Part shown: positions 1,015-59,317 of the stretch, one piece after another
Position numbering within the stretch: position 1 is the stretch's first letter
Layout of the letters: every line of letters begins with the position of its first letter
Source of the DNA: Candidatus Omnitrophota bacterium
GTDB lineage: Bacteria > Omnitrophota > Gorgyraeia > JAHJTE01
Length of the DNA: 64,000 nucleotides
Assembly (NCBI GenBank): GCA_040753675.1
Contig: JBFMEB010000003.1
Span: 1,715-65,714 of the forward strand
Direction of reading: 5' to 3'
Program-made: the position numbers and the translations under genes
The notes under the pieces: model-generated
The model's input: only the letters and a program-made list of their open reading frames with translations
What the model was told of the DNA's origin: nothing
The model's database searches: none

Positions 1015-2311
1015 TTTTAGGTTTTGGCCAATGTTTCTCTATCATTGATTTTTTTATGCCCGTTTCTTCCGGGCTAAAACACTCGCAGAGAATTTCCCAG
1101 CCTAAATCTAACGCCTTTTCGAGCGGAATATTCACTTCTAAAGACATCATTTGTTTCTCGAAAATTCTGCCGTATTTAAGCAGTTTCTTGTCCCAGTTGC
1201 TCATGGCAAATCCCATTGCTTGTTTTTCTACTGTCTCCCTGAAATTAGCAAATAATTGAATCATAGTATCCATAATAGTGCGGTGGTCATCGCGTGTCTT
1301 GCCGTTTACCTGCTGCTTTAGTCGACTCAATGAACCAAACGGTTCAATAACCCTGTCTTTAAGATAAAATTGGCCTTCGGTAATGTAACCAGTATTGTCT
1401 GGCACCGGATGAGTAACATCATCTCCTGGCATAGTAGTAACTGCAAGGATAGTAATTGAACCTGCTCCTTCAAAGTCAACTGCCTTTTCATAACGGCTGG
1501 CTAATTGGCTATACAAATCTCCAGGATAGCCACGGTTTGAAGGCACATGCTCCATAGTAATGGAAATCTCTTTTAAGGCGTCAGAAAAATTGGTCATATC
1601 AGTTAACAAAACCAAAACACGTTTTCCAGCCAAGGCAAACTGTTCAGCCACAGCCAAACTTATGTCCGGAACAAGCATGCACTCTACAACAGGGTCAGAA
1701 GCAGTGTGTATAAAAAATACTGTGCGCGATAATGCGCCTTGCTCCTCTAAGGTATCTCTAAAGAAAAGGTAGTCATCATGCTTTAAGCCCATACCTCCTA
1801 AAATAATCACATCAACTTCTGCCTGTATGGCAATCCTTGCCAATAGTTCATTATACGGCTCGCCAGCAATGGAAAATATGGGCAGCTTCTGAGACACAAC
1901 TAAAGAATTAAAAACATCAATCATCGGAATGCCAGTGCGAATCATTTTGTTTGGTATTATCCTTTTCACCGGATTAACTGGCGGCCCACCAATATCAATA
2001 ATATCTTGAGATAAAGCCGGGCCCTTATCCAAAGGCTCGCCGCTGCCATTAAATATGCGGCCCAATAGGCTATCTCCACTGGCAATATGCATTGGATGGC
2101 CTAAGAAGCGTACCTTATCACCTGTTGAAACGCCTTTGCTCCCGGCAAAAACCTGCAAAGATACTCTTTCACCTTCCAGGCGTATTACCTGGGCAAGAGA
2201 AACGCCACGCCTTGTAGTCACCTGCGCTATCTCAGCATTGCCAACAGCCTCTGCCTCAACTGTAATAACATCACCTGCAATCTCCACTATATTTGTATAA
2301 ATTTTATACAT
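1007..2311 (-). CDS. atpB: V-type ATP synthase subunit B (regulatory)
   Basis: 434 aa with an alpha/beta ATPase fold and no canonical Walker A motif. Adjacent to, and overlapping, the A subunit gene. Confidence 0.85.
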
Positions 2312-4070
2312 CTATAATCTCACTTTCAGATTTAATCTTTTCCTTTTCTGTAGCAATAATTTCTTTTTCAATGGCTTTAAATTCTTCTGATTGCCAGGGG
2401 CTTGAATTCCAACCTCGAAAAAGCTGCCTTAAGCTCTGGAAAAAGTGCAAAGCCTCTTCTTTGCTATCAAGTTTAAATTCTTGCTCTAAAATGTTTTGGT
2501 AGATAAAATTAAATGTATATTTTTGCCTTTCTTCGGATGTCGCCTCATCAACTGGGTCAAATGCATTCTGCTGCAGATAAACAAAATCAAAAAACTCACC
2601 CTTTAAATAATCTATGTAATCCGCTAAAGATGTTCCTTCTTCTCCCACAACCTTCATCATCTGCGCCACGTCAAAACTTTTTCGTAAGATTTCATGGCCT
2701 TTTTTTGCCTGTCTCTCATCTATAAAACTCTTATATTTGCTCCAGCTTATCAGTGGATCAATGGCAGGATAACGCCTTGCATTTGCGCGTTGGTTTGATA
2801 ATCCATGAAATGCGCCAACTACTTTTAAGGTGGCCTGGGTAACTGGCTCATCGAAATTTCCTCCAGCAGGGCTTACTGTCCCACCAATAGTTACAGAGCC
2901 CATTGAGCCGTCGTGTAATTTAACAATGCCGGCCCGTTCATAAAAAGAAGCGATGCGCGACTCTAAATAAGCAGGGAATGCCTCTTCACCGGGTATTTCT
3001 TCTAAACGGCCTGACATCTCGCGCATTGCCTGTGCCCAACGAGAGGTTGAATCTGCAAGAAGCAAAACATTTAATCCCATTTGTCGGTAATATTCGGCAA
3101 TTGTTACAGCAGTATAAACTCCTGATTCTCGTGCTGCTACTGGCATAGAACTGGTATTACACATTATCACTGTACGGTCACTCAAGGGTTTATTTGTGCG
3201 CGGGTCAATCAAATGCGGGAATGTTTTAAGAGTTTCCACTGCCTCACCTGCCCGCTCGCCGCATGCAGCAACGACAACAATGTCTACCTCAGCGTGGCGG
3301 CTGGTTAATTGTTGTAGCACAGTTTTACCAGAGCCAAATGGTCCTGGGATACAAAAGGTTCCACCTAAGGCAACTGGAAACAAGGAATCGATTAATCGCA
3401 TTTTGGTAACTAAAGTGCCCTGGGGTTTTAATTTTTCAGCATACGCAGAAATAGGAACCTTGACTGGCCAAACTTGTCTTAAAAAAACTTCATGAATCTT
3501 TCCCTGTGCATCTTTTAACTTTGCAATCGCTTGTTCTAAATTATATCTTCCTGGATTTGCTATCTGGACAACTTCAAGATTGCCCTTTAAGCTAAAAGGC
3601 GCCATAATAAAGTGCTTAAAAATCTTCTCTGGAACAAAGCCTAATTTTGCTCCGGCAAAAACAAAATCGCCAACTTTAGCAATAGGCGTAAAATCCCACT
3701 CGCTTTGTGAAGGAAGCGCCTGGATATAAACACCCCTTTTTAAAAAGAAACCATGATCTTTAGCCAAATCTGGCAAGGGATTTTGTAAGCCATCAAATAT
3801 CTGGCCTAAAAGACCAGGCCCGAGTTCTACGCAAAGAAGCTCTCCCGTAAACTCCACTTCTTCTCCTACTTGAAGGCCAGAGGTATTTTCAAATACCTGC
3901 ATCTCAGCCTGCCTTGCGCGAATTCGTATAACCTCAGCTTTTAGCTGCTCTTTGCCATGCAAGACAAAAGCAACCTCATTCTGAATTATATTGTCCTCTG
4001 TTTGCGCAGATACCATATTGCCAATAATTTTTGTAATCCGGCCTTCCCTTTTCTCTCTCATATTCATCAA
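2304..4070 (-). CDS. atpA: V-type ATP synthase subunit A (catalytic)
   Basis: 588 aa with Walker A GPFGSGKT and a non-homologous insert region typical of V/A-type A subunits. Confidence 0.9.
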
Positions 4071-4074
4071 CCTT

Positions 4075-4602
4075 TCAATGCACCTTTAAGGCTTCTTCTA
4101 AAACTTGCTTCTTATCCGAGATATTGATTCTTTCCCAACGCTCTAAAATCAACAATTTAAGGCAATAGATAATTAAAAAATCTAAATCAAAATAATGACC
4201 AAAACAAAAGTCATCTAAGGCCTGCCATCTGGCAAGGTCTAAAATTTTTTCTGCCTCTAAGATAGATGAACTGCGCAAAGCAGTTATGGCAATATTGGTA
4301 ATAAACGCTTCTGGAAATCTATCCTTGCGCAAATAACGGCCAGGGTCGATATGCATTCGTTGGGCACGGTTCTTAACCAATTCATTTCTTAATGTGCTAT
4401 CAAAATCCTGCCATTTTTTTAGGGTAGCTTGGACAATAGTAGAGTAATCTCCTGAAATCGAGAGCTTTTTTAGAATCTGGATATCAGCATCAGGAATAAA
4501 TCTCTGACAATATATAATAAATTCTTTAAAACTAAAAGGAGGCTTTGTGCCAAACTGAAGAGAAGGCAAACTCGAAATTAAATAAGTATAAAAATAGGAC
4601 AT
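4075..4602 (-). CDS. hypothetical protein embedded in V-ATPase operon (possible accessory subunit)
   Basis: 175 aa ORF between the E and A subunit genes. No recognisable motif, so the call rests on position only. Confidence 0.3.
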   Translation of the reverse strand: MSYFYTYLISSLPSLQFGTKPPFSFKEFIIYCQRFIPDADIQILKKLSISGDYSTIVQATLKKWQDFDSTLRNELVKNRAQRMHIDPGRYLRKDRFPEAFITNIAITALRSSSILEAEKILDLARWQALDDFCFGHYFDLDFLIIYCLKLLILERWERINISDKKQVLEEALKVH

Positions 4603-13834: not shown

Positions 13835-16348
13835 CTAGAAGAGGCTCAACTGCTCTTCTTGTTTTTTATCTTCGTTTTCGTCAAATATCTTAATAGTGCC
13901 ATACTCTCCGTCGTAGCCAGCTAATATTTTAACTCTTCCCTCGCGCACTCTTAAGATTCCTTCAGCTATGCGTGGGTTAAGAGATTTCTTTAACTCTTCT
14001 TTTGGCACATTAACTAATACCTCAAACTCAGTTTTGAATTTACTTATAATAGAAAAATATTCTTTTTCAACTGTCTGACTAACTTTTCCTACGCCTTTTG
14101 CCTCGGCAATTATTTCATCTAATGGTATTAAATTCTTGAAGGCAATTGCATTTTCTGGATTAAAGCCTTCAGGCCTATCTGCCAATTGTCCTACTCTATT
14201 CATAACCCCTATAGTTACTGGCTTGCCACATTTAGGGCATTTGCCATTATGCTGCTTAGTCTCTTTCGGTGAAAGTCTAATCTGGCAAAGGCGGTGACCG
14301 TCATAATGATATTTTCCCTCTTCGGGGAAAAATTCTATTGTGTAGAGAAATCTCTTTTTATCTTTTGTTTTTAAAACTTCACTGATGGTGTGATAGTCTA
14401 ACTCGCAGTCAAAAACATTTGCTTCCCGGCCAATTCTCGACGGAGAGTGACTATCTGAATTGCTGATCAGGGTAAATCTATCTAAGGCGCTCAGGCGCCA
14501 GTTCATAGATGGATCAGACGATAAACCGCTCTCAAGAGCAAATATTTTTGAAGTTTGTTCTTCAAAGCAGTATTCAATTTTATCAAAACCAGACATTGAA
14601 CCAAAAAGACTAAACCAAGGGGTCCAGCAATTATGAACAGTAGCGAATTCACATACATAAGAATTATCGTCTTCCACTTCTAAATTATAAACAGCTCCTT
14701 TATACTTTTCTTTGAGAATACTTCTAATCGGAAGATATGCATATTTATCATCTATCCAACCATGTCTCGATGGTGATTTTGTTCGAAATTTTCTAAGATT
14801 GCTTTCTTTTAATAAACCAAACTTGTCCTCAAAGAAAGATAGATTGTTGAAATGAAATATATTATGCCGAGCTGATATTCTCCTTAATCCTATAAAATGT
14901 TTACCACGATTTTCATATCCATCTGTAGAATCTATGCCGATGGAAGGAATTATGCCCAATCTTAAGAATATTGCTTTCATTTGATTCATCAAAGTTCGAG
15001 AAACAGTATATCCTCCATCTCCGCGCCACCAACCCTTTACAATCTCTACTTGTTTTTCAAGAGATAATTCTAACATCCATTCTGGCAAACACTTAGTATG
15101 AGCTTTCTTTATTTTTGTATTTATATAGAATAGCCTGCCGAACAATTTACATAAAACCTTGGAATAGAAAATTAACTCTGCTCCTTTCGTATCTTTTTTA
15201 ATGCGCATCTTTGATAAATCGGCATCAAAGATTTTTTTCATTAAATTTATTACATCTTTAATATATCCCTTTTCATTGCTGGAAAAACAAAATGAAACAC
15301 AATCTCTGTTATTTGTATACCCTTCAGAAACAAAATATCCTACTAATCTACAAAAATCCTTATTAATATCAATATCATTATTGATAAAATTCACTTTTGA
15401 GCCTCTATATGCGATTTTATTTCTTTTTAAAATTAATTTTTCTGGCAATAGTTTATTTATTTGCAAACTAACCCTCTCTTTAATTTGATTATTAAACCTG
15501 GGGAAAATTAAAATATCATTGATTTCGAGGTCTTTGGCTTGCACCCATTGTGGGCAATATTGGTTAAAAAATCTTCGGCTGCATCCTTTATATTGCAATT
15601 GAGAACATTTTGGCATACAAAAACTACCCCTCGAACGACAATTCTTATATGATTTTATTATATAAAATGGATGTTCTGGAGTAGTTTTTATGCCCTCTCT
15701 AAAATAATAAGGTTTTATATGAAATAATTCTCCCGTGTATTCTCTTCTAAATGATTTATTAACTTCTCTAAATCGCATTTTATGAGTATATACATAATCA
15801 TTCTTTGCGATATCTTGTATCAGTTTCAATCCATTAGAAGTATGCACAAAAGTATCTGGCAGGAGACAATGCGCTGGAACAATCATGCACTGCGGCGAGA
15901 TATCAAATACAATTTTTGCCAAATCCCGTGCATCCAGGCCTAATATCGGCCTGCCGTCTGAGGCAAGATTGCCAATGCCGGAAAGATGTTGGTTTATCTC
16001 ATCTACAATTTTAAACGATGGCGCAATGATAAGGTTATGTATCCGATAAGTCCTGCCTTTTTTAGAATATATACTGCTTACCTCTGCGGTGAGTATAAAA
16101 TAAATGCCCTTTCCTCCAGAATCCGTAGCGGACCCGCCGCTCTTTGTGGCGGGATGTATAAACAGGCCATTGCCTAAATCTTCTAAATTATGCTTTAATT
16201 CTTCAAGCCACAAGTGATGAGTAAAATCACCCGTCCCCATTAGAGTAATGCCCTTTAACTTAGCCCAGTCAGCAATATGTTTTACATCCATATCCTTGCT
16301 GGTAGCGCGAGAGTATTTTGAATGAATGTGGAAGTCGGCGATAAACAT
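13835..16348 (-). CDS. EndoQ-like PHP-domain nuclease (TIGR00375 family) interrupted by an intein
   Basis: The N-terminal PHP domain FIADFHIHSKYSRATS...GTGDFTHH and the C-terminal zinc ribbon CPKCGKP match endonuclease Q-type proteins. A 413 aa intein separates the extein halves. Confidence 0.65.
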   Translation of the reverse strand: MFIADFHIHSKYSRATSKDMDVKHIADWAKLKGITLMGTGDFTHHLWLEELKHNLEDLGNGLFIHPATKSGGSATDSGGKGIYFILTAEVSSIYSKKGRTYRIHNLIIAPSFKIVDEINQHLSGIGNLASDGRPILGLDARDLAKIVFDISPQCMIVPAHCLLPDTFVHTSNGLKLIQDIAKNDYVYTHKMRFREVNKSFRREYTGELFHIKPYYFREGIKTTPEHPFYIIKSYKNCRSRGSFCMPKCSQLQYKGCSRRFFNQYCPQWVQAKDLEINDILIFPRFNNQIKERVSLQINKLLPEKLILKRNKIAYRGSKVNFINNDIDINKDFCRLVGYFVSEGYTNNRDCVSFCFSSNEKGYIKDVINLMKKIFDADLSKMRIKKDTKGAELIFYSKVLCKLFGRLFYINTKIKKAHTKCLPEWMLELSLEKQVEIVKGWWRGDGGYTVSRTLMNQMKAIFLRLGIIPSIGIDSTDGYENRGKHFIGLRRISARHNIFHFNNLSFFEDKFGLLKESNLRKFRTKSPSRHGWIDDKYAYLPIRSILKEKYKGAVYNLEVEDDNSYVCEFATVHNCWTPWFSLFGSMSGFDKIEYCFEEQTSKIFALESGLSSDPSMNWRLSALDRFTLISNSDSHSPSRIGREANVFDCELDYHTISEVLKTKDKKRFLYTIEFFPEEGKYHYDGHRLCQIRLSPKETKQHNGKCPKCGKPVTIGVMNRVGQLADRPEGFNPENAIAFKNLIPLDEIIAEAKGVGKVSQTVEKEYFSIISKFKTEFEVLVNVPKEELKKSLNPRIAEGILRVREGRVKILAGYDGEYGTIKIFDENEDKKQEEQLSLF
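14630..15868 (-). mobile_element. intein with LAGLIDADG homing endonuclease domain inside the EndoQ-like gene
   Basis: Splice junctions are PAH/CLLPDTF at the N-terminal end and TVHN/CWTPW at the C-terminal end. Internal LAGLIDADG-like motifs are LVGYFVSEGY and GWWRGDGGY. The upper coordinate is uncertain by 1-2 nt. Confidence 0.7.
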
Positions 16349-16390
16349 AATTAAATTGTTTAACTGCTAAATGGCTACATTGTTAACAAT

Positions 16391-16849
16391 CTAACAATTT
16401 GACAATTTAGCAATGGTTTCTTTGACGTTCCCCCAATGCGTGCCTTGCCAGTAAATCCGTGCACAATTTGGGCAGGTAACAAACTTGTTATTAGTATTGT
16501 AAACAAATTCTGGCACCTTCAATCTAACCGCCTCTTTTTCTATTGGCCTTAATGCTTCATTACAAATAATGCAGCGGCTAAACATCTTATTCTCTTCGAC
16601 AGGAAAGTTTAACTCCTTGAAAATTTCTCTTAACTGCTCAGCCAAAAAATCACTCTCAATTTTTAAGATTCTTAAACCAGCATGCCTTCCTATCTTCGAG
16701 TTCCTTGTTAAAATAATGCGGTTTTCCCGTAGCGCTGCAATTAATAAACTGCTTAGATTAGTAGAGGTGTAATATTCTGTATCAAATCCAAAAATGCGCA
16801 GCCACTTTGCGAGCCTGCCTAATTCTTTTGTCACGATGAATTTGTGCAC
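16391..16849 (-). CDS. Mut7-C RNase domain (DUF82) protein with C-terminal zinc ribbon
   Basis: 152 aa. LGRLAKWLRIFGFD is a PF01927-like motif, and CIICNEAL...CPNCARIYWQGTHW forms a Zn ribbon. Confidence 0.55.
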   Translation of the reverse strand: MHKFIVTKELGRLAKWLRIFGFDTEYYTSTNLSSLLIAALRENRIILTRNSKIGRHAGLRILKIESDFLAEQLREIFKELNFPVEENKMFSRCIICNEALRPIEKEAVRLKVPEFVYNTNNKFVTCPNCARIYWQGTHWGNVKETIAKLSNC

Positions 16850-19931: not shown

Positions 19932-21368
19932 ATGGTTAAATATAAATTTTCATTTATTATCGCCTTTAGCGCTCTGATAACTATTAACTCCGCCTATTAT
20001 GGCCTGGCTGCCTCTATCGATACTACAGAAGAACAAAAACTTATTGAAGAGGAAAACAGGCGGGAATTAAAAGATATTCCTATAAAGCCGCCTGTTAAAG
20101 AAAAAGTTTTCTCTCTAAGATACGGCGGATGGTTTACAACCCTTTTCAGGGATTATGCTGATTTAGATAATGATGCCGGCGTAAAAGACCTTACTTCCTG
20201 GATCTTAACTGAAGACCTAAGGCTTTGGTCGCAAATAAATTACAATAATGAATATATCCTATATGCGAGGCTTAAACACCTCTATACCCGTCGGGACATA
20301 AGCTCTCTTTCAACTAATTATCGTAGCGATTATGATGGGCCGCATTTAGATATGGCTTATCTTAATATTAATAAGCCAAAGTGGAAGGTGCCGGTTGATT
20401 TAACCGTCGGCAGACAATATCTTTTTATCGGCAGAGGCATTGCTTATAGCGATGTTAACTATGGCGTAAAATTCAAGACAAATATCGGCCGCAAGGCTTA
20501 TATTAAAAGTTTTATCTCGCAGTCTGATGAAAACGAAGACAATATCGATGAAAGCGTGCCAAATTATAAAAAAACCGGAAGCCGCCTCTTTGCTGGGGCA
20601 GAACTTGCTTATTCTGGCTTAAAGGATAATTTAATATATGGATTTGTATTGATCCAGAAGGATAAAAATCCGCGCTTCCCGCCTGAAACACCGACTCAAA
20701 GCTACCGATATAACAGCGAATATTATGGCCTGGGTTTACAAAGCATAAATCCTAAGAGTAAGTTAAGTTATTGGCTTGAAGCTATAAATGAACAAGGTAA
20801 GAGCCATACTGATACAGCTTCAGTTGATTTAGATGAAAAAAATATTAATGCCTGGGCAGTTGATGCGGGATTGAATTATAAAATTAACTTGCCGCTAAAG
20901 CCAGGATTTGAATTTGAGTATGCTTACGGCTCGGGCGACAAAGACCGCACCAGCGTCACGGATACCCGCTCAGGCGGCAACCTCTATGGAGATGACACGA
21001 ATTTCTTGTACTTTGGAAGCTTTTTTTCCGGCTATGCCCTGGCGCCACGGCTATCAAATTTGCATATCTACAAATTAGATTTTTCATTAAGGCCTTTTGA
21101 AAAAATTAAACTTTGGAAAAATATAGTCTGCGGAGTTAAATATTTTAAATACCGCAAGGATAAAAAAAGTGGCGGCATATACGATACTGAAGCTACACTA
21201 AGTAGCCTTGATGTTGGCCAAGAAGCAGATGCCTATTTTTATTGGCAAGTAAAGAAAAACATCTATTGGTCAAGTCGATTTGGCATATTCTTACCTGGTG
21301 ATGCCTACCCCTCCACAACCAACGACAACACTAAATACTTCTACAGCCGGTTAATGATAACCTTTTAA
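19932..21368 (+). CDS. putative outer-membrane beta-barrel protein
   Basis: 478 aa with a signal peptide, alternating amphipathic beta-strand pattern, an aromatic-rich sequence and a C-terminal Phe. Confidence 0.4.
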   Translation: MVKYKFSFIIAFSALITINSAYYGLAASIDTTEEQKLIEEENRRELKDIPIKPPVKEKVFSLRYGGWFTTLFRDYADLDNDAGVKDLTSWILTEDLRLWSQINYNNEYILYARLKHLYTRRDISSLSTNYRSDYDGPHLDMAYLNINKPKWKVPVDLTVGRQYLFIGRGIAYSDVNYGVKFKTNIGRKAYIKSFISQSDENEDNIDESVPNYKKTGSRLFAGAELAYSGLKDNLIYGFVLIQKDKNPRFPPETPTQSYRYNSEYYGLGLQSINPKSKLSYWLEAINEQGKSHTDTASVDLDEKNINAWAVDAGLNYKINLPLKPGFEFEYAYGSGDKDRTSVTDTRSGGNLYGDDTNFLYFGSFFSGYALAPRLSNLHIYKLDFSLRPFEKIKLWKNIVCGVKYFKYRKDKKSGGIYDTEATLSSLDVGQEADAYFYWQVKKNIYWSSRFGIFLPGDAYPSTTNDNTKYFYSRLMITF

Positions 21369-21444
21369 TAACCATTTAAAAATCAATGAGTTACAATAAT
21401 AAAATTTTTTGTTTTTCCAGCATAATTATGTTATACTTATATTG

Positions 21445-21677
21445 ACAAGAAACGTATAAGCACGAAAAGGCAAACTCTCCGTAAGGAGTAGGGCGTCAGC
21501 CACAAAGCGTGGCTGACCCTCCGAAGCTAAACACGGAGTTCGCGAAAGCGAACAAAGTTTTTTAGCGTAGGACGGGCAAAACTATAGGGCCCCGGAATTT
21601 TGAGGCAGCCAGTTACCGAATGCGAAATGTAACATTAAACCTATTCTTTACGAGAATAGGTTTTTTGTTTGAGGTAC
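21445..21677 (+). ncRNA. structured 5' leader / candidate riboswitch with intrinsic terminator
   Basis: A sigma70-like promoter (TTGTTT-17-TATACT, 21409..21437) precedes the leader. The roughly 230 nt GC-enriched leader contains GGCAAAC, a GUAA-capped hairpin, a GAAA-capped hairpin and the terminator cctattctttacgagaatagg+T6 (21640..21666) immediately before the start codon. Confidence 0.35.
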
Positions 21678-21680
21678 AAA

Positions 21681-22169
21681 ATGAAAAAGACTATTATTAT
21701 GCTAACGCTCATTATAGCTCTATTTATTACCTCCTCTAGTTATGCAGACTGGGTTGAGAGATCAGAATCTAGCTGCAATGATTTGGAGTTTTTATCAGAA
21801 GTACAACATGAAAAGCTCGCGCAACAAAAGGAAGAGAAGGAGAAATTGGAGACATTTTCATCTACTGCTGATAATGAAACATCTTCTACAAGTACTTCGA
21901 CTGCTAGTGATAACGGCAGTGACAGCGACAGTGACGGCTCAGGGAACTCTGGTGGCGGTACAGGTAGTTTAGGTGGTAGCAATGATGAAGATGAGGGGGA
22001 TGGTGGCGGTGGCACGGAAAAAGTGGGCGTGGCTTTTGAGGAAAGTACTACAGCAGGTGTCACTACTATTACTGGTATAGGCGAAACTGGTACAGATGGA
22101 ACGAAAGATGATGCTAACACAGGCTCACTTCAAGGCGATGTGAGCAACAAACTAAAAGTTCTGCAATAA
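21681..22169 (+). CDS. secreted acidic Gly/Ser/Thr/Asp-rich low-complexity protein
   Basis: Signal peptide MKKTIIMLTLIIALFITSSSYA followed by a disordered STSTSTASDNGSDSDSDGSGNSGGG region. The track ORF begins at an upstream TTG (21669). Confidence 0.5.
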   Translation: MKKTIIMLTLIIALFITSSSYADWVERSESSCNDLEFLSEVQHEKLAQQKEEKEKLETFSSTADNETSSTSTSTASDNGSDSDSDGSGNSGGGTGSLGGSNDEDEGDGGGGTEKVGVAFEESTTAGVTTITGIGETGTDGTKDDANTGSLQGDVSNKLKVLQ

Positions 22170-27590: not shown

Positions 27591-31280
<3,690 letters not shown>

Positions 31281-41807: not shown

Positions 41808-41968
41808 TGAATTTTGCTTTAGCAAAATTCACCCCGAGCTCTTATAGAAAATTTTCATATGTTTAGCGAGGGGCTGTAATTAAACTGTTAAATTGTTAAA
41901 CTGCTAAATTGAAAAACAATATGGCAATTTAGCAATATAGCAATCAATTTCGAAGGGCAAGTGGTGGA

Positions 41969-44768: not shown

Positions 44769-44906
44769 CTAATTTATCCTCCTATGCTAAATACTACGTC
44801 GCTTTGCTCCTTTGTGTTTAGCTTCGGAGAGATTAAATTCCGGCTTACAAGTTATCTCGCCCATTGGGCTCCATAACTTGTGCCGTCATTTAAGGAGGTG
44901 GTAGAT

Positions 44907-52807: not shown

Positions 52808-53026
52808 TTATCTTAAGCCCTTGCAATTTTGTTGTCGCTATGATATACTTACTCTGCGAATATAGCCCTGCAGTGTTCGTTGGATAGATTGGATATTTTT
52901 TGAACCAACACAATCTTAAAGGGAGCTCGACTTCATCTGTGCTTGCGGGCAGGATGAGAGGCGCCCACGTGTAACAACAACGGTTCAGATTGCCCTATCC
53001 GACGACACAAGCGGGGTTTTTTATTT

Positions 53027-58942: not shown

Positions 58943-59317
58943 ATGTGGGATGGGATTAATCGTCGCCGGTTTCCCCGAGCTGATTATCCATGCCTAATTA
59001 AGATTCGAAAGAAGAAAGGCAAAGAAACCCTTGCGGCGAAAACCGAAAATCTTGGTTGCGGCGGCATCTGCGCTATCTTAGAGAAAGACTTAGGGCTGTT
59101 CTCAAGCGTGGATATAGAGCTTGACCTTCAAGACGGGGCAGCGCCAATTAAAGCCGAAGGCACTGTTGTTTGGGTAGTTAGGCGCCATGAGATTAAAAAA
59201 GACAGGGCTGGATATTTTGATACTGGTATAGAGTTCAAAGACTTAGACAGCAAGAATATTGAGAGGATTGAAAAGATAGTTGATAAATGCCTACAGACCG
59301 ATCAGACAAAAGGCTAA
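58943..59317 (+). CDS. PilZ domain protein (putative c-di-GMP receptor)
   Basis: 124 aa with RRRFPR (RxxxR) and NLGCGG (D/NxSxxG-like) motifs spaced as in PilZ. Confidence 0.5.
   Translation: MWDGINRRRFPRADYPCLIKIRKKKGKETLAAKTENLGCGGICAILEKDLGLFSSVDIELDLQDGAAPIKAEGTVVWVVRRHEIKKDRAGYFDTGIEFKDLDSKNIERIEKIVDKCLQTDQTKG

Follow-up and report, generated by a model that had tools for sequence, protein, structure and literature searches.

Riboswitches of the c-di-GMP-I class (GEMM-I, RF01051 in Rfam), for which Vc2 of Vibrio cholerae is the structural reference, respond to cyclic dimeric guanosine monophosphate (c-di-GMP) and have a contiguous three-helix architecture of about 80-90 nucleotides (nt), in which a stem, P1, carries two arms. 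The binding pocket of this class is stabilised by the pairs G45-C22 and C46-G21 and by C44-G83, and in Vc2 the mutation G83C abolishes binding (PMC11705072). Here we describe a leader RNA encoded in a 64,000-nt stretch of DNA (the window) from a Candidatus Omnitrophota bacterium (GenBank assembly GCA_040753675.1, contig JBFMEB010000003.1), within the spacer between an outer-membrane porin gene and a gene for a small secreted protein (21369-21680, both genes on the plus strand). An earlier note, made from the sequence alone, had tentatively placed the leader in the c-di-GMP-I/GEMM class and had named an Rfam scan and a look for covariation in homologous leaders as checks. We find that the new element is an interrupted form of this known riboswitch class.

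The leader resembles RF01051 in its P1 stem, in an arm 1 capped by a GNRA tetraloop, in its arm 2, and in the core GGCAAAC...GG(G/A)CGCAAA(G/A)C...AGCC...ACCGAA, and it has equivalents of G20, A25, G42, C44, A47, G83 and C92. The expression platform is likewise an intrinsic terminator, and the cargo is of the secreted or surface type. It differs in that its aptamer is 164 nt long, carries an 81-nt insertion and fails the covariance model, in that arm 2 lacks the 11-nt tetraloop receptor, as in the canonical orthologues of the clade, and in that the proposed switching strand is the 3' strand of arm 1 and not the 3' strand of P1.

When the whole window was scanned with Rfam at gathering thresholds, only tRNAs and one 6S RNA were reported, and the spacer had no match. 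A permissive search of the spacer returned two adjacent sub-threshold matches from the c-di-GMP-I clan, both to c-di-GMP-I-GGC (RF03167, gathering score 59 bits). The first (21460-21513) scores 23.0 bits, with arm 1 fitting and arm 2 missing, and the second (21517-21621) scores 22.8 bits, with arm 2 fitting and arm 1 replaced by a 37-nt insert. While RF03167 is the best sub-threshold family for each half, the scores lie far below its cut-off, the orthologous leaders match RF01051 (gathering score 35 bits), and the pocket bases are the canonical G, A and C. The sole reason for the failure to reach a gathering score is that the insertion splits the aptamer. An Rfam scan of the leader, taken by itself (best score 23 bits, to RF03167), would therefore have led to a wrong rejection of the class.

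In order to place the leader among its relatives we collected 166 relatives of the porin and compared the contigs of the closest ones. Seven distinct orthologous spacers (L001, L004, L006, L009, L010, L011 and L013) score 53-67 bits with RF01051. A clade covariance model (R1), built from these seven canonical orthologues with the window left out, matches both halves of the window aptamer (E = 1.6e-9 and E = 2e-10; 42.9 bits for the 3' half) and matches a further leader, L003, as a single hit (E = 7.6e-13). Across the window it detects no further GEMM-like element, the next best score being 13.7 bits (E = 0.15). Because the orthologues pass RF01051, the window aligns with them colinearly, and the clade model matches both halves, we conclude from sequence comparison that the leader is by descent a c-di-GMP-I (GEMM-I) riboswitch, although the family model does not recognise it. 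The tentative class assignment of the earlier note thus holds: seven leaders from the same gene order pass RF01051, and every core position is intact in the window. The parts of the aptamer are as follows.

21460-21623, plus strand: the whole aptamer, 164 nt as against about 83 in the canonical unit
21460-21464, plus strand: 5' strand of P1, GCACG, which pairs with 21617-21623 and is conserved in alignment A3
21469-21494, plus strand: 5' half of the aptamer core, from the G20 equivalent to the G42-G43-C44 equivalents, aligning with the orthologues that pass the gathering score
21576-21616, plus strand: 3' half of the aptamer core, fitting arm 2 of c-di-GMP-I models (clade model and covariation)
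21617-21623, plus strand: 3' strand of P1, CGAAUGC, with invariant CG/GC pairs in alignment A3

Nine leaders were aligned (the window, L003 and the seven canonical orthologues), eight of which extend through the terminator, and the Vc2 numbering was checked against PMC11705072. The window is colinear with its orthologues and near-identical to them on both sides of a single large gap, flanked on the 5' side by ...GCACGAAAAGGCAAACUCUCCGUAAGGAGUAGGGC and on the 3' side by GCAAAACUAUAGGGCC...GGCAGCCAGUUACCGAAUGC. The 5' half comprises the G20 equivalent (21469), G21-C22, the AAA loop, the helix of arm 1, capped by the GUAA tetraloop at 21481-21484, and the G42-G43-C44 equivalents (21492-21494); it fits arm 1 of c-di-GMP-I models, and compensatory changes are present. 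The 3' half holds the G45-C46 equivalents (21576-21577) and A47 (21578); arm 2 occupies 21580-21614, in which the equivalent of G83 (21608) is bulged, and 21616 corresponds to C92. Among the nine leaders 46 columns are invariant, including those of the ligand-contact equivalents, all of which are retained in the window (G20 as G21469, A47 as A21578, C92 as C21616). The equivalents of the A25-G42 pair (A21474 and G21492) and of the interhelical pair C44-G83 (C21494 and G21608) are also kept, with identical bases in 9/9 leaders. Core identity between the window and the leaders passing the gathering score is 82-93%, with 90% for L006, and it is 93% for L003. The GUAA tetraloop on arm 1 is present, but neither the window nor L009 and L010, two orthologues above the gathering score, have bases at the UAAg/uAu receptor columns of the model; arm 2 may instead offer a helical receptor.

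Covariation supports the same structure. Over the aptamer plus terminator 94.5% of alignment cells pair, as against 33-48% when the partners are slid as a control, and compensatory double changes occur in nine pairs; two examples are the change of C22-G45 to U-A in L010 and, at the foot of arm 2, a GC/AU/GU series. The covariation proposed as a check is therefore found. As to the individual GEMM motifs read from the sequence earlier, GGCAAAC, the GUAA-capped hairpin and GGGCG are indeed present at 21469-21495, whereas the CAAAGC hairpin, CUAAAC and the GAAA hairpin belong to the inserted module; the true junction is GCAAAAC at 21576-21582.

The insertion occupies 21495-21575, between the C44 and G45 equivalents; as G and GC are repeated at its two ends, the boundary is fixed only to within one or two bases. 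The contiguous architecture of the class is lost with it, while the helices are retained. Folded alone, the insertion forms two adjoining hairpins (-38.6 kcal/mol, z = -7.5) that make use of its first and last nucleotides, so that its ends are held together.

21495-21517, plus strand: hairpin B, GUCAGCCAC-AAAGC-GUGGCUGAC, 9 base pairs, absent from the seven canonical orthologues and found in L003
21518-21575, plus strand: hairpin C, -24.7 kcal/mol (z = -4.3), a member of a dispersed hairpin family

Hairpin C starts with the outer stem, CCUCC/GGA(C)GG; next come the 3x3 loop GAA/GUA and the stem GCUAAA/UUUAGC, and GAAA caps its tip, GUUCGC/GCGAAC. When the consensus aptamer pairs are enforced, B and C still form, at a total of 5.3 kcal/mol above the minimum free energy (MFE). 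The same enforcement costs 0.9-3.8 kcal/mol in six of the seven canonical orthologues; the outlier, L001 (12.7 kcal/mol), is explained by misaligned arm-2 columns. Since both hairpins form alongside the enforced aptamer pairs, the insertion, which lies on the 3' side of the internal loop of arm 1 (P1b), is predicted at the level of secondary structure to make that loop a four-way junction and not to outcompete the aptamer. The earlier note had read a switch into alternative pairing of a CUCCG segment with CGGAG partners; this pairing takes place within hairpin C, and neither L003 nor the seven canonical orthologues have it, so the proposal has to be abandoned.

Two adjacent model matches in one leader are also what is seen in tandem c-di-GMP-I riboswitches, which occur as doublets and triplets, for example Bc3-5 of Bacillus thuringiensis, and doublets are common in the class (347 reported, PMC9481103). 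It could accordingly be supposed that the 164 nt are two fused c-di-GMP-I aptamers that arose by duplication of a unit of about 83 nt and whose inner halves have decayed. The length of the insertion (81 nt against the 83-nt unit) agrees with this, Rfam and the clade model both give two side-by-side full-length matches, and GUAGGACGG, with which the insertion closes on its 3' side, is a repeat of GUAGGGCG at the end of arm 1. However, the window has one complete set of core positions, and its inner segments are not significantly aptamer-like. A global alignment of the insertion with the circularly permuted unit scores 39, as against 35.7 +/- 4.6 for shuffles, and is equalled by 259 of 1000 shuffles; local alignments to either half are not significant either (equalled by 119-298 of 1000). 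Neither inner half forms a P1 stem or a binding pocket, the P1 pairs being non-canonical, and significant similarity (0/1000 shuffles) links 58 of the 81 nt to an unrelated dispersed hairpin family instead. Because the alignments to the unit and to its halves do no better than shuffles, we rejected a tandem duplication as the primary explanation, and we regard it as extremely improbable.

The question of how such an RNA could control its downstream gene leads to the expression platform and to the strand that competes with it.

21637-21666, plus strand: intrinsic terminator, with a 12-base-pair stem, a UAC-containing loop and U6 (hairpin 21637-21663)
21481-21492, plus strand: anti-terminator strand GUAAGGAGUAGG (arm-1 tetraloop and 3' strand), which pairs with CCUAUUCUUUAC at 21640-21651

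The terminator scan recovered at 21637-21666 the intrinsic terminator described earlier, whose T6 (21661-21666) ends 14 nt before the ATG. It is conserved in all eight leaders that reach this far, with 93% of cells paired. In the window, GUAAGGAGUAGG and CCUAUUCUUUAC form 12 contiguous pairs (-15.7 kcal/mol, z = -4.8), compared with -12.2 kcal/mol for the terminator hairpin, and pairing between the arm-1 strand and the terminator is present in all eight leaders with a terminator (-9.4 to -21.3 kcal/mol, z = -1.8 to -4.8). In L003, L004, L009 and L011 it appears in the MFE structure of transcripts truncated before the 3' strand of the terminator. In L009 the 5' strand of the terminator has changed from UUCUC to UUCCC, which weakens the terminator and yet matches the arm-1 strand of that leader, GGGAA. 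Other strands were considered as anti-terminators and rejected: the P1 3' strand pairs weakly with the 5' strand of the terminator (-2 to -5 kcal/mol), and P1 3' or arm-2 3' pairings (-2 to -10 kcal/mol) are inconsistent among orthologues.

Because the arm-1 strand is a strong and conserved competitor of the terminator, we infer an off switch. Transcription would begin at an extended -10 promoter, and the split core would still fold and bind c-di-GMP. Without ligand, GUAAGGAGUAGG would engage CCUAUUCUUUAC, the terminator's 5' strand and loop, and prevent termination; with c-di-GMP, the docked aptamer would sequester GUAAGGAGUAGG, the terminator at 21637-21666 would form, and the small protein gene would be turned off.

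When the insertion was compared with the window by BLAST, 16 nt, CTCCGAAGCTAAACAC, proved to recur exactly on the minus strand (44814-44829) in the spacer between thrS and infC. The similarity extends along the whole hairpin (local score 56, as against 17.8 +/- 3.3 for shuffles), and a profile of the two window copies detected a third copy in related contigs.

44777-44836, minus strand: second copy of hairpin C, in the thrS-infC spacer, antisense to the flanking genes, with the same fold architecture
8876-8926 of L004, with identical sequences at 4972-5022 of L005 and on the minus strand of L008: third copy, between a tRNA gene and glmS

The third copy has the GAAA tip and a compensatory change of the GCUAAA/UUUAGC stem to GCUGAA/UUCAGC. 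All three copies fold alike (z = -3.5 to -4.9), their pairwise similarities exceed 1000/1000 shuffles, and two of the three are antisense to local transcription. Since significantly similar copies with the same fold lie in unrelated spacers, we conclude that hairpin C is, as far as its sequence relationships tell, a member of a small dispersed palindromic repeat and not a riboswitch-specific domain. It resembles repetitive extragenic palindromic (REP) repeats and those like MITEs, the miniature transposable elements with inverted repeats, in being an imperfect palindrome of 50-60 nt with three copies in two genomes and in both orientations. It differs from them in that three copies only were seen, in that hairpin C lies inside a functional RNA domain and not between genes, and in that no clear terminal inverted repeats or target duplications are present beyond the imperfect flanking repeat GUAGGRCG (GUAGGGCG / GUAGGACGG); none was identified with a transposase, no search having been aimed at transposases. 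The copy search covered about 150 kb, in which nhmmer and regular-expression searches found three C copies only, and hairpin B was found beyond the window only in L003. A low-threshold Rfam search of the thrS-infC copy returned no family. A small dispersed hairpin repeat is thereby documented in a poorly known phylum, inside a functional RNA.

Several minor features surround the second copy. It sits directly after the thrS stop codon and is followed by a separate strong hairpin at about 44838-44875, and the probable start codon of infC is an AUU some 7 nt past GGAGGUG and not the GTG listed by the open reading frame (ORF) tool.

The leader of L003 offers a second view of the insertion. It carries an insertion of 42 nt at the identical site, which folds as two abutting hairpins, with hairpin C shortened. 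Its hairpin B is homologous to that of the window (18 of 23 positions identical); one A-U pair has become C-G by a compensatory change, and there is one mismatch. Over the inserted sequence the two leaders share 79% identity across 42 alignable nt, with 39 further gap columns, and the spacer between P1 and the terminator is 69% identical. Because the core stayed constant (93%) while the inserted sequence drifted, these comparisons argue that the split aptamer was kept under selection alongside its insertion.

In a neighbour-joining tree of the porins, L003 pairs with L012 and the window with L006 among the four closest lineages, which gives ((L003, L012), (window, L006)). The L012 contig ends inside arm 1. 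Since L006 is canonical within this tree, the history of the insertion requires either a loss after the gain or a transfer. L006 (1940-1950, compared with 21567-21577 of the window) is the only orthologue in which arm 1 ends in GGAC, which resembles the distal repeat of the window, GUAGGACGG, and not the proximal one, GUAGGGCG. This GGAC may be the scar of a deletion between the flanking repeats; against this, the consensus of the whole family has A there as well.

A number of observations weigh against a sensor that still works. The leader falls below every Rfam gathering score, including the 35 bits of RF01051, and insertion-bearing leaders were found only twice, in the window and in L003. 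No third one was obtained: profile relatives of the small protein occur only in the L004-like clade, whose leaders are all canonical. A protein-guided scan and a DNA-pattern scan of genome contigs gave no match, and the two contigs that a pattern scan of metagenomes yielded were both in the set already. Within the insertion there is a terminator-like hairpin (21538-21553), with U6 four bases downstream (AAAGUUUUUU).

The remaining difficulties are also those that speak for a different account, in which a selfish repeat inserted beside C44/G45 killed c-di-GMP binding and left an inactivated relic, a ligand-blind attenuator set by the balance between anti-terminator and terminator. The insertion lies one nucleotide from the C44-G83 pair and adjoins the pairs G45-C22 and C46-G21, and the site is expected to be sensitive because these pairs stabilise the pocket and G83C abolishes binding in Vc2. 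The dispersal of hairpin C in unrelated spacers, in either orientation to transcription, fits selfish insertion. In L006, whose porin is the most similar (79% identity), there is no insertion. The gap between the consensus fold and the MFE exceeds that of six of the seven canonical orthologues, and the distal stem of arm 2 is weakened in the window by one C.A mismatch and two G.U pairs. However, all invariant core positions are kept in both insertion-bearing lineages, whereas a dead aptamer should have decayed to an extent comparable with the insert (79%, with large indels) and the P1-to-terminator spacer (69%), and the expression platform and the downstream ORF are intact. We therefore consider an inactivated relic a serious but rather unlikely explanation; if the insertion did kill the sensor, the locus would be a clean natural case of riboswitch inactivation by a repeat element.

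The insertion is, moreover, self-contained in shape. We observe orthology, conservation of the core, compatibility of the folds and conserved anti-terminator complementarity, and with these in view we lean towards a working c-di-GMP off switch with a split aptamer, whose ligand binding and off polarity seem to us somewhat probable. If so, a riboswitch fold may tolerate a large insertion right beside its binding pocket, and the C44/G45 backbone would be a permissive site of use in the engineering of c-di-GMP sensors. In a literature search of limited coverage we found no report of insertions in GEMM-I aptamers or at C44-G45, nor of repeats inside riboswitch aptamers. Annotation by covariance models misses such members, which here reach 23 bits against cut-offs of 35-59.

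It may also be asked whether the insertion adds a function of its own, as a structural brace, as a protein-binding hairpin, or as the seed of a c-di-GMP-dependent small RNA directed against the thrS-infC mRNA spacer. Terminated riboswitch transcripts that act in trans are known, as in the case of SreA of Listeria. The 16-nt exact match lies opposite to the strand transcribed through thrS-infC, with about 0.002 matches expected by chance, and conservation in the 5' part of the hairpin family exceeds what a simple stem requires. Such complementarity is, however, automatic for a quasi-palindromic repeat inserted both ways, most of hairpin C is lost in L003, and the third copy lies in the unrelated tRNA-glmS spacer, so that we judge an added function very unlikely. 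The most elaborate version, in which a five-helix RNA (P1, arm 1, B, C and arm 2) would sense c-di-GMP and the terminated leader would pair with the thrS-infC mRNA, is a long shot that we hold to be highly improbable. The leader repeat and that mRNA share 16 perfectly complementary bases and about 45/60 overall, and were the pairing real, c-di-GMP levels would be coupled in trans to a translation-factor operon.

The remaining features of the locus concern the promoter and the flanking genes.

19932-21368, plus strand: upstream gene, an outer-membrane porin of the alginate-export family (PF13372, E = 1e-20)
21409-21414, plus strand: weak -35-like hexamer TTGTTT, read from the sequence, with 3/6 bases of the consensus TTGACA
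21429-21437, plus strand: extended -10 element TGtTATACT, with TATACT at 21432-21437
21671-21674, plus strand: Shine-Dalgarno sequence GAGG, 6 nt before the ATG, read from the sequence
21681-22169, plus strand: gene for the small secreted acidic protein, 162 amino acids, ATG at 21681, from the ORF list

TTGTTT and TATACT are separated by 17 nt, and a consensus scan did not list the pair because TTGTTT has only half of the consensus bases. The hexamers and spacing given earlier for a sigma70 promoter are therefore right, at the same coordinates, but the promoter is not a good one in the sense intended: its -35 element is poor, and it is of the extended -10 type. TGtTATACT is unchanged across all orthologous leaders and in the distant relative L014, which has no riboswitch. 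Transcription would start at about 21444-21446 and produce a structured leader of about 236 nt. The leader had been described as enriched in guanine plus cytosine (GC) and structured, and both points stand: its GC fraction is 0.52-0.53, as against 0.20-0.35 in the flanks, and 21445-21672 folds at -78.9 kcal/mol, compared with -53.9 +/- 3.8 for shuffles (z = -6.66; none of 200 shuffles equal).

The regulated gene had been taken to encode a secreted acidic low-complexity cargo, which agrees with the family alignment (A2) of its product: its signal peptide ends in YA/DW, and it has the conserved short motif ESS..E(F/W) and an acidic low-complexity tail. A search with the single protein sequence found only itself, and it has no Pfam or NCBIfam match; a profile search yielded nine members, all in Omnitrophota-type contigs. 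Long related contigs share the gene order pyrC-pyrB-pyrR, porin, a spacer of 260-310 nt, the small protein, and then rsmI, glmS and gyrA on the opposite strand, and the core of porin, leader and small protein is kept in every contig that is long enough. The porin and the small secreted protein are thereby documented as a conserved Omnitrophota module under predicted control by a c-di-GMP riboswitch. In L014 the same promoter (4490-4550, plus strand) and a similar small protein follow the porin, and the module adjoins a gene for a CHASE2-GGDEF diguanylate cyclase (1156-2856, minus strand). Because this module has no riboswitch and yet adjoins such a gene, we conclude that the link to c-di-GMP is older than the riboswitch. 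Additionally, the PilZ protein noted earlier at 58943 is confirmed (PF07238, E = 2e-13).

Other observations in the window concern loci at a distance from the leader. The 6S RNA gene (52862-53021, plus strand) scores 53.7 bits against an Rfam gathering score of 46.4. The AT-rich spacers at 16348-16414 and 41885-41936 share a stretch of about 65 nt, TAATTAAAyTGTTwAAyTGyTAAA...CAATTTrrCAATwTAGCAAT, which contains repeated CAATTT/AAATTG half-sites and may represent a shared operator or promoter architecture. The GyrB gene of the window (27591-31280, minus strand; 1229 amino acids) carries an intein (PF14890) between its GyrB and Toprim domains, and GyrA contains an intein in L001 (1251 amino acids) and none in the window (809 amino acids).

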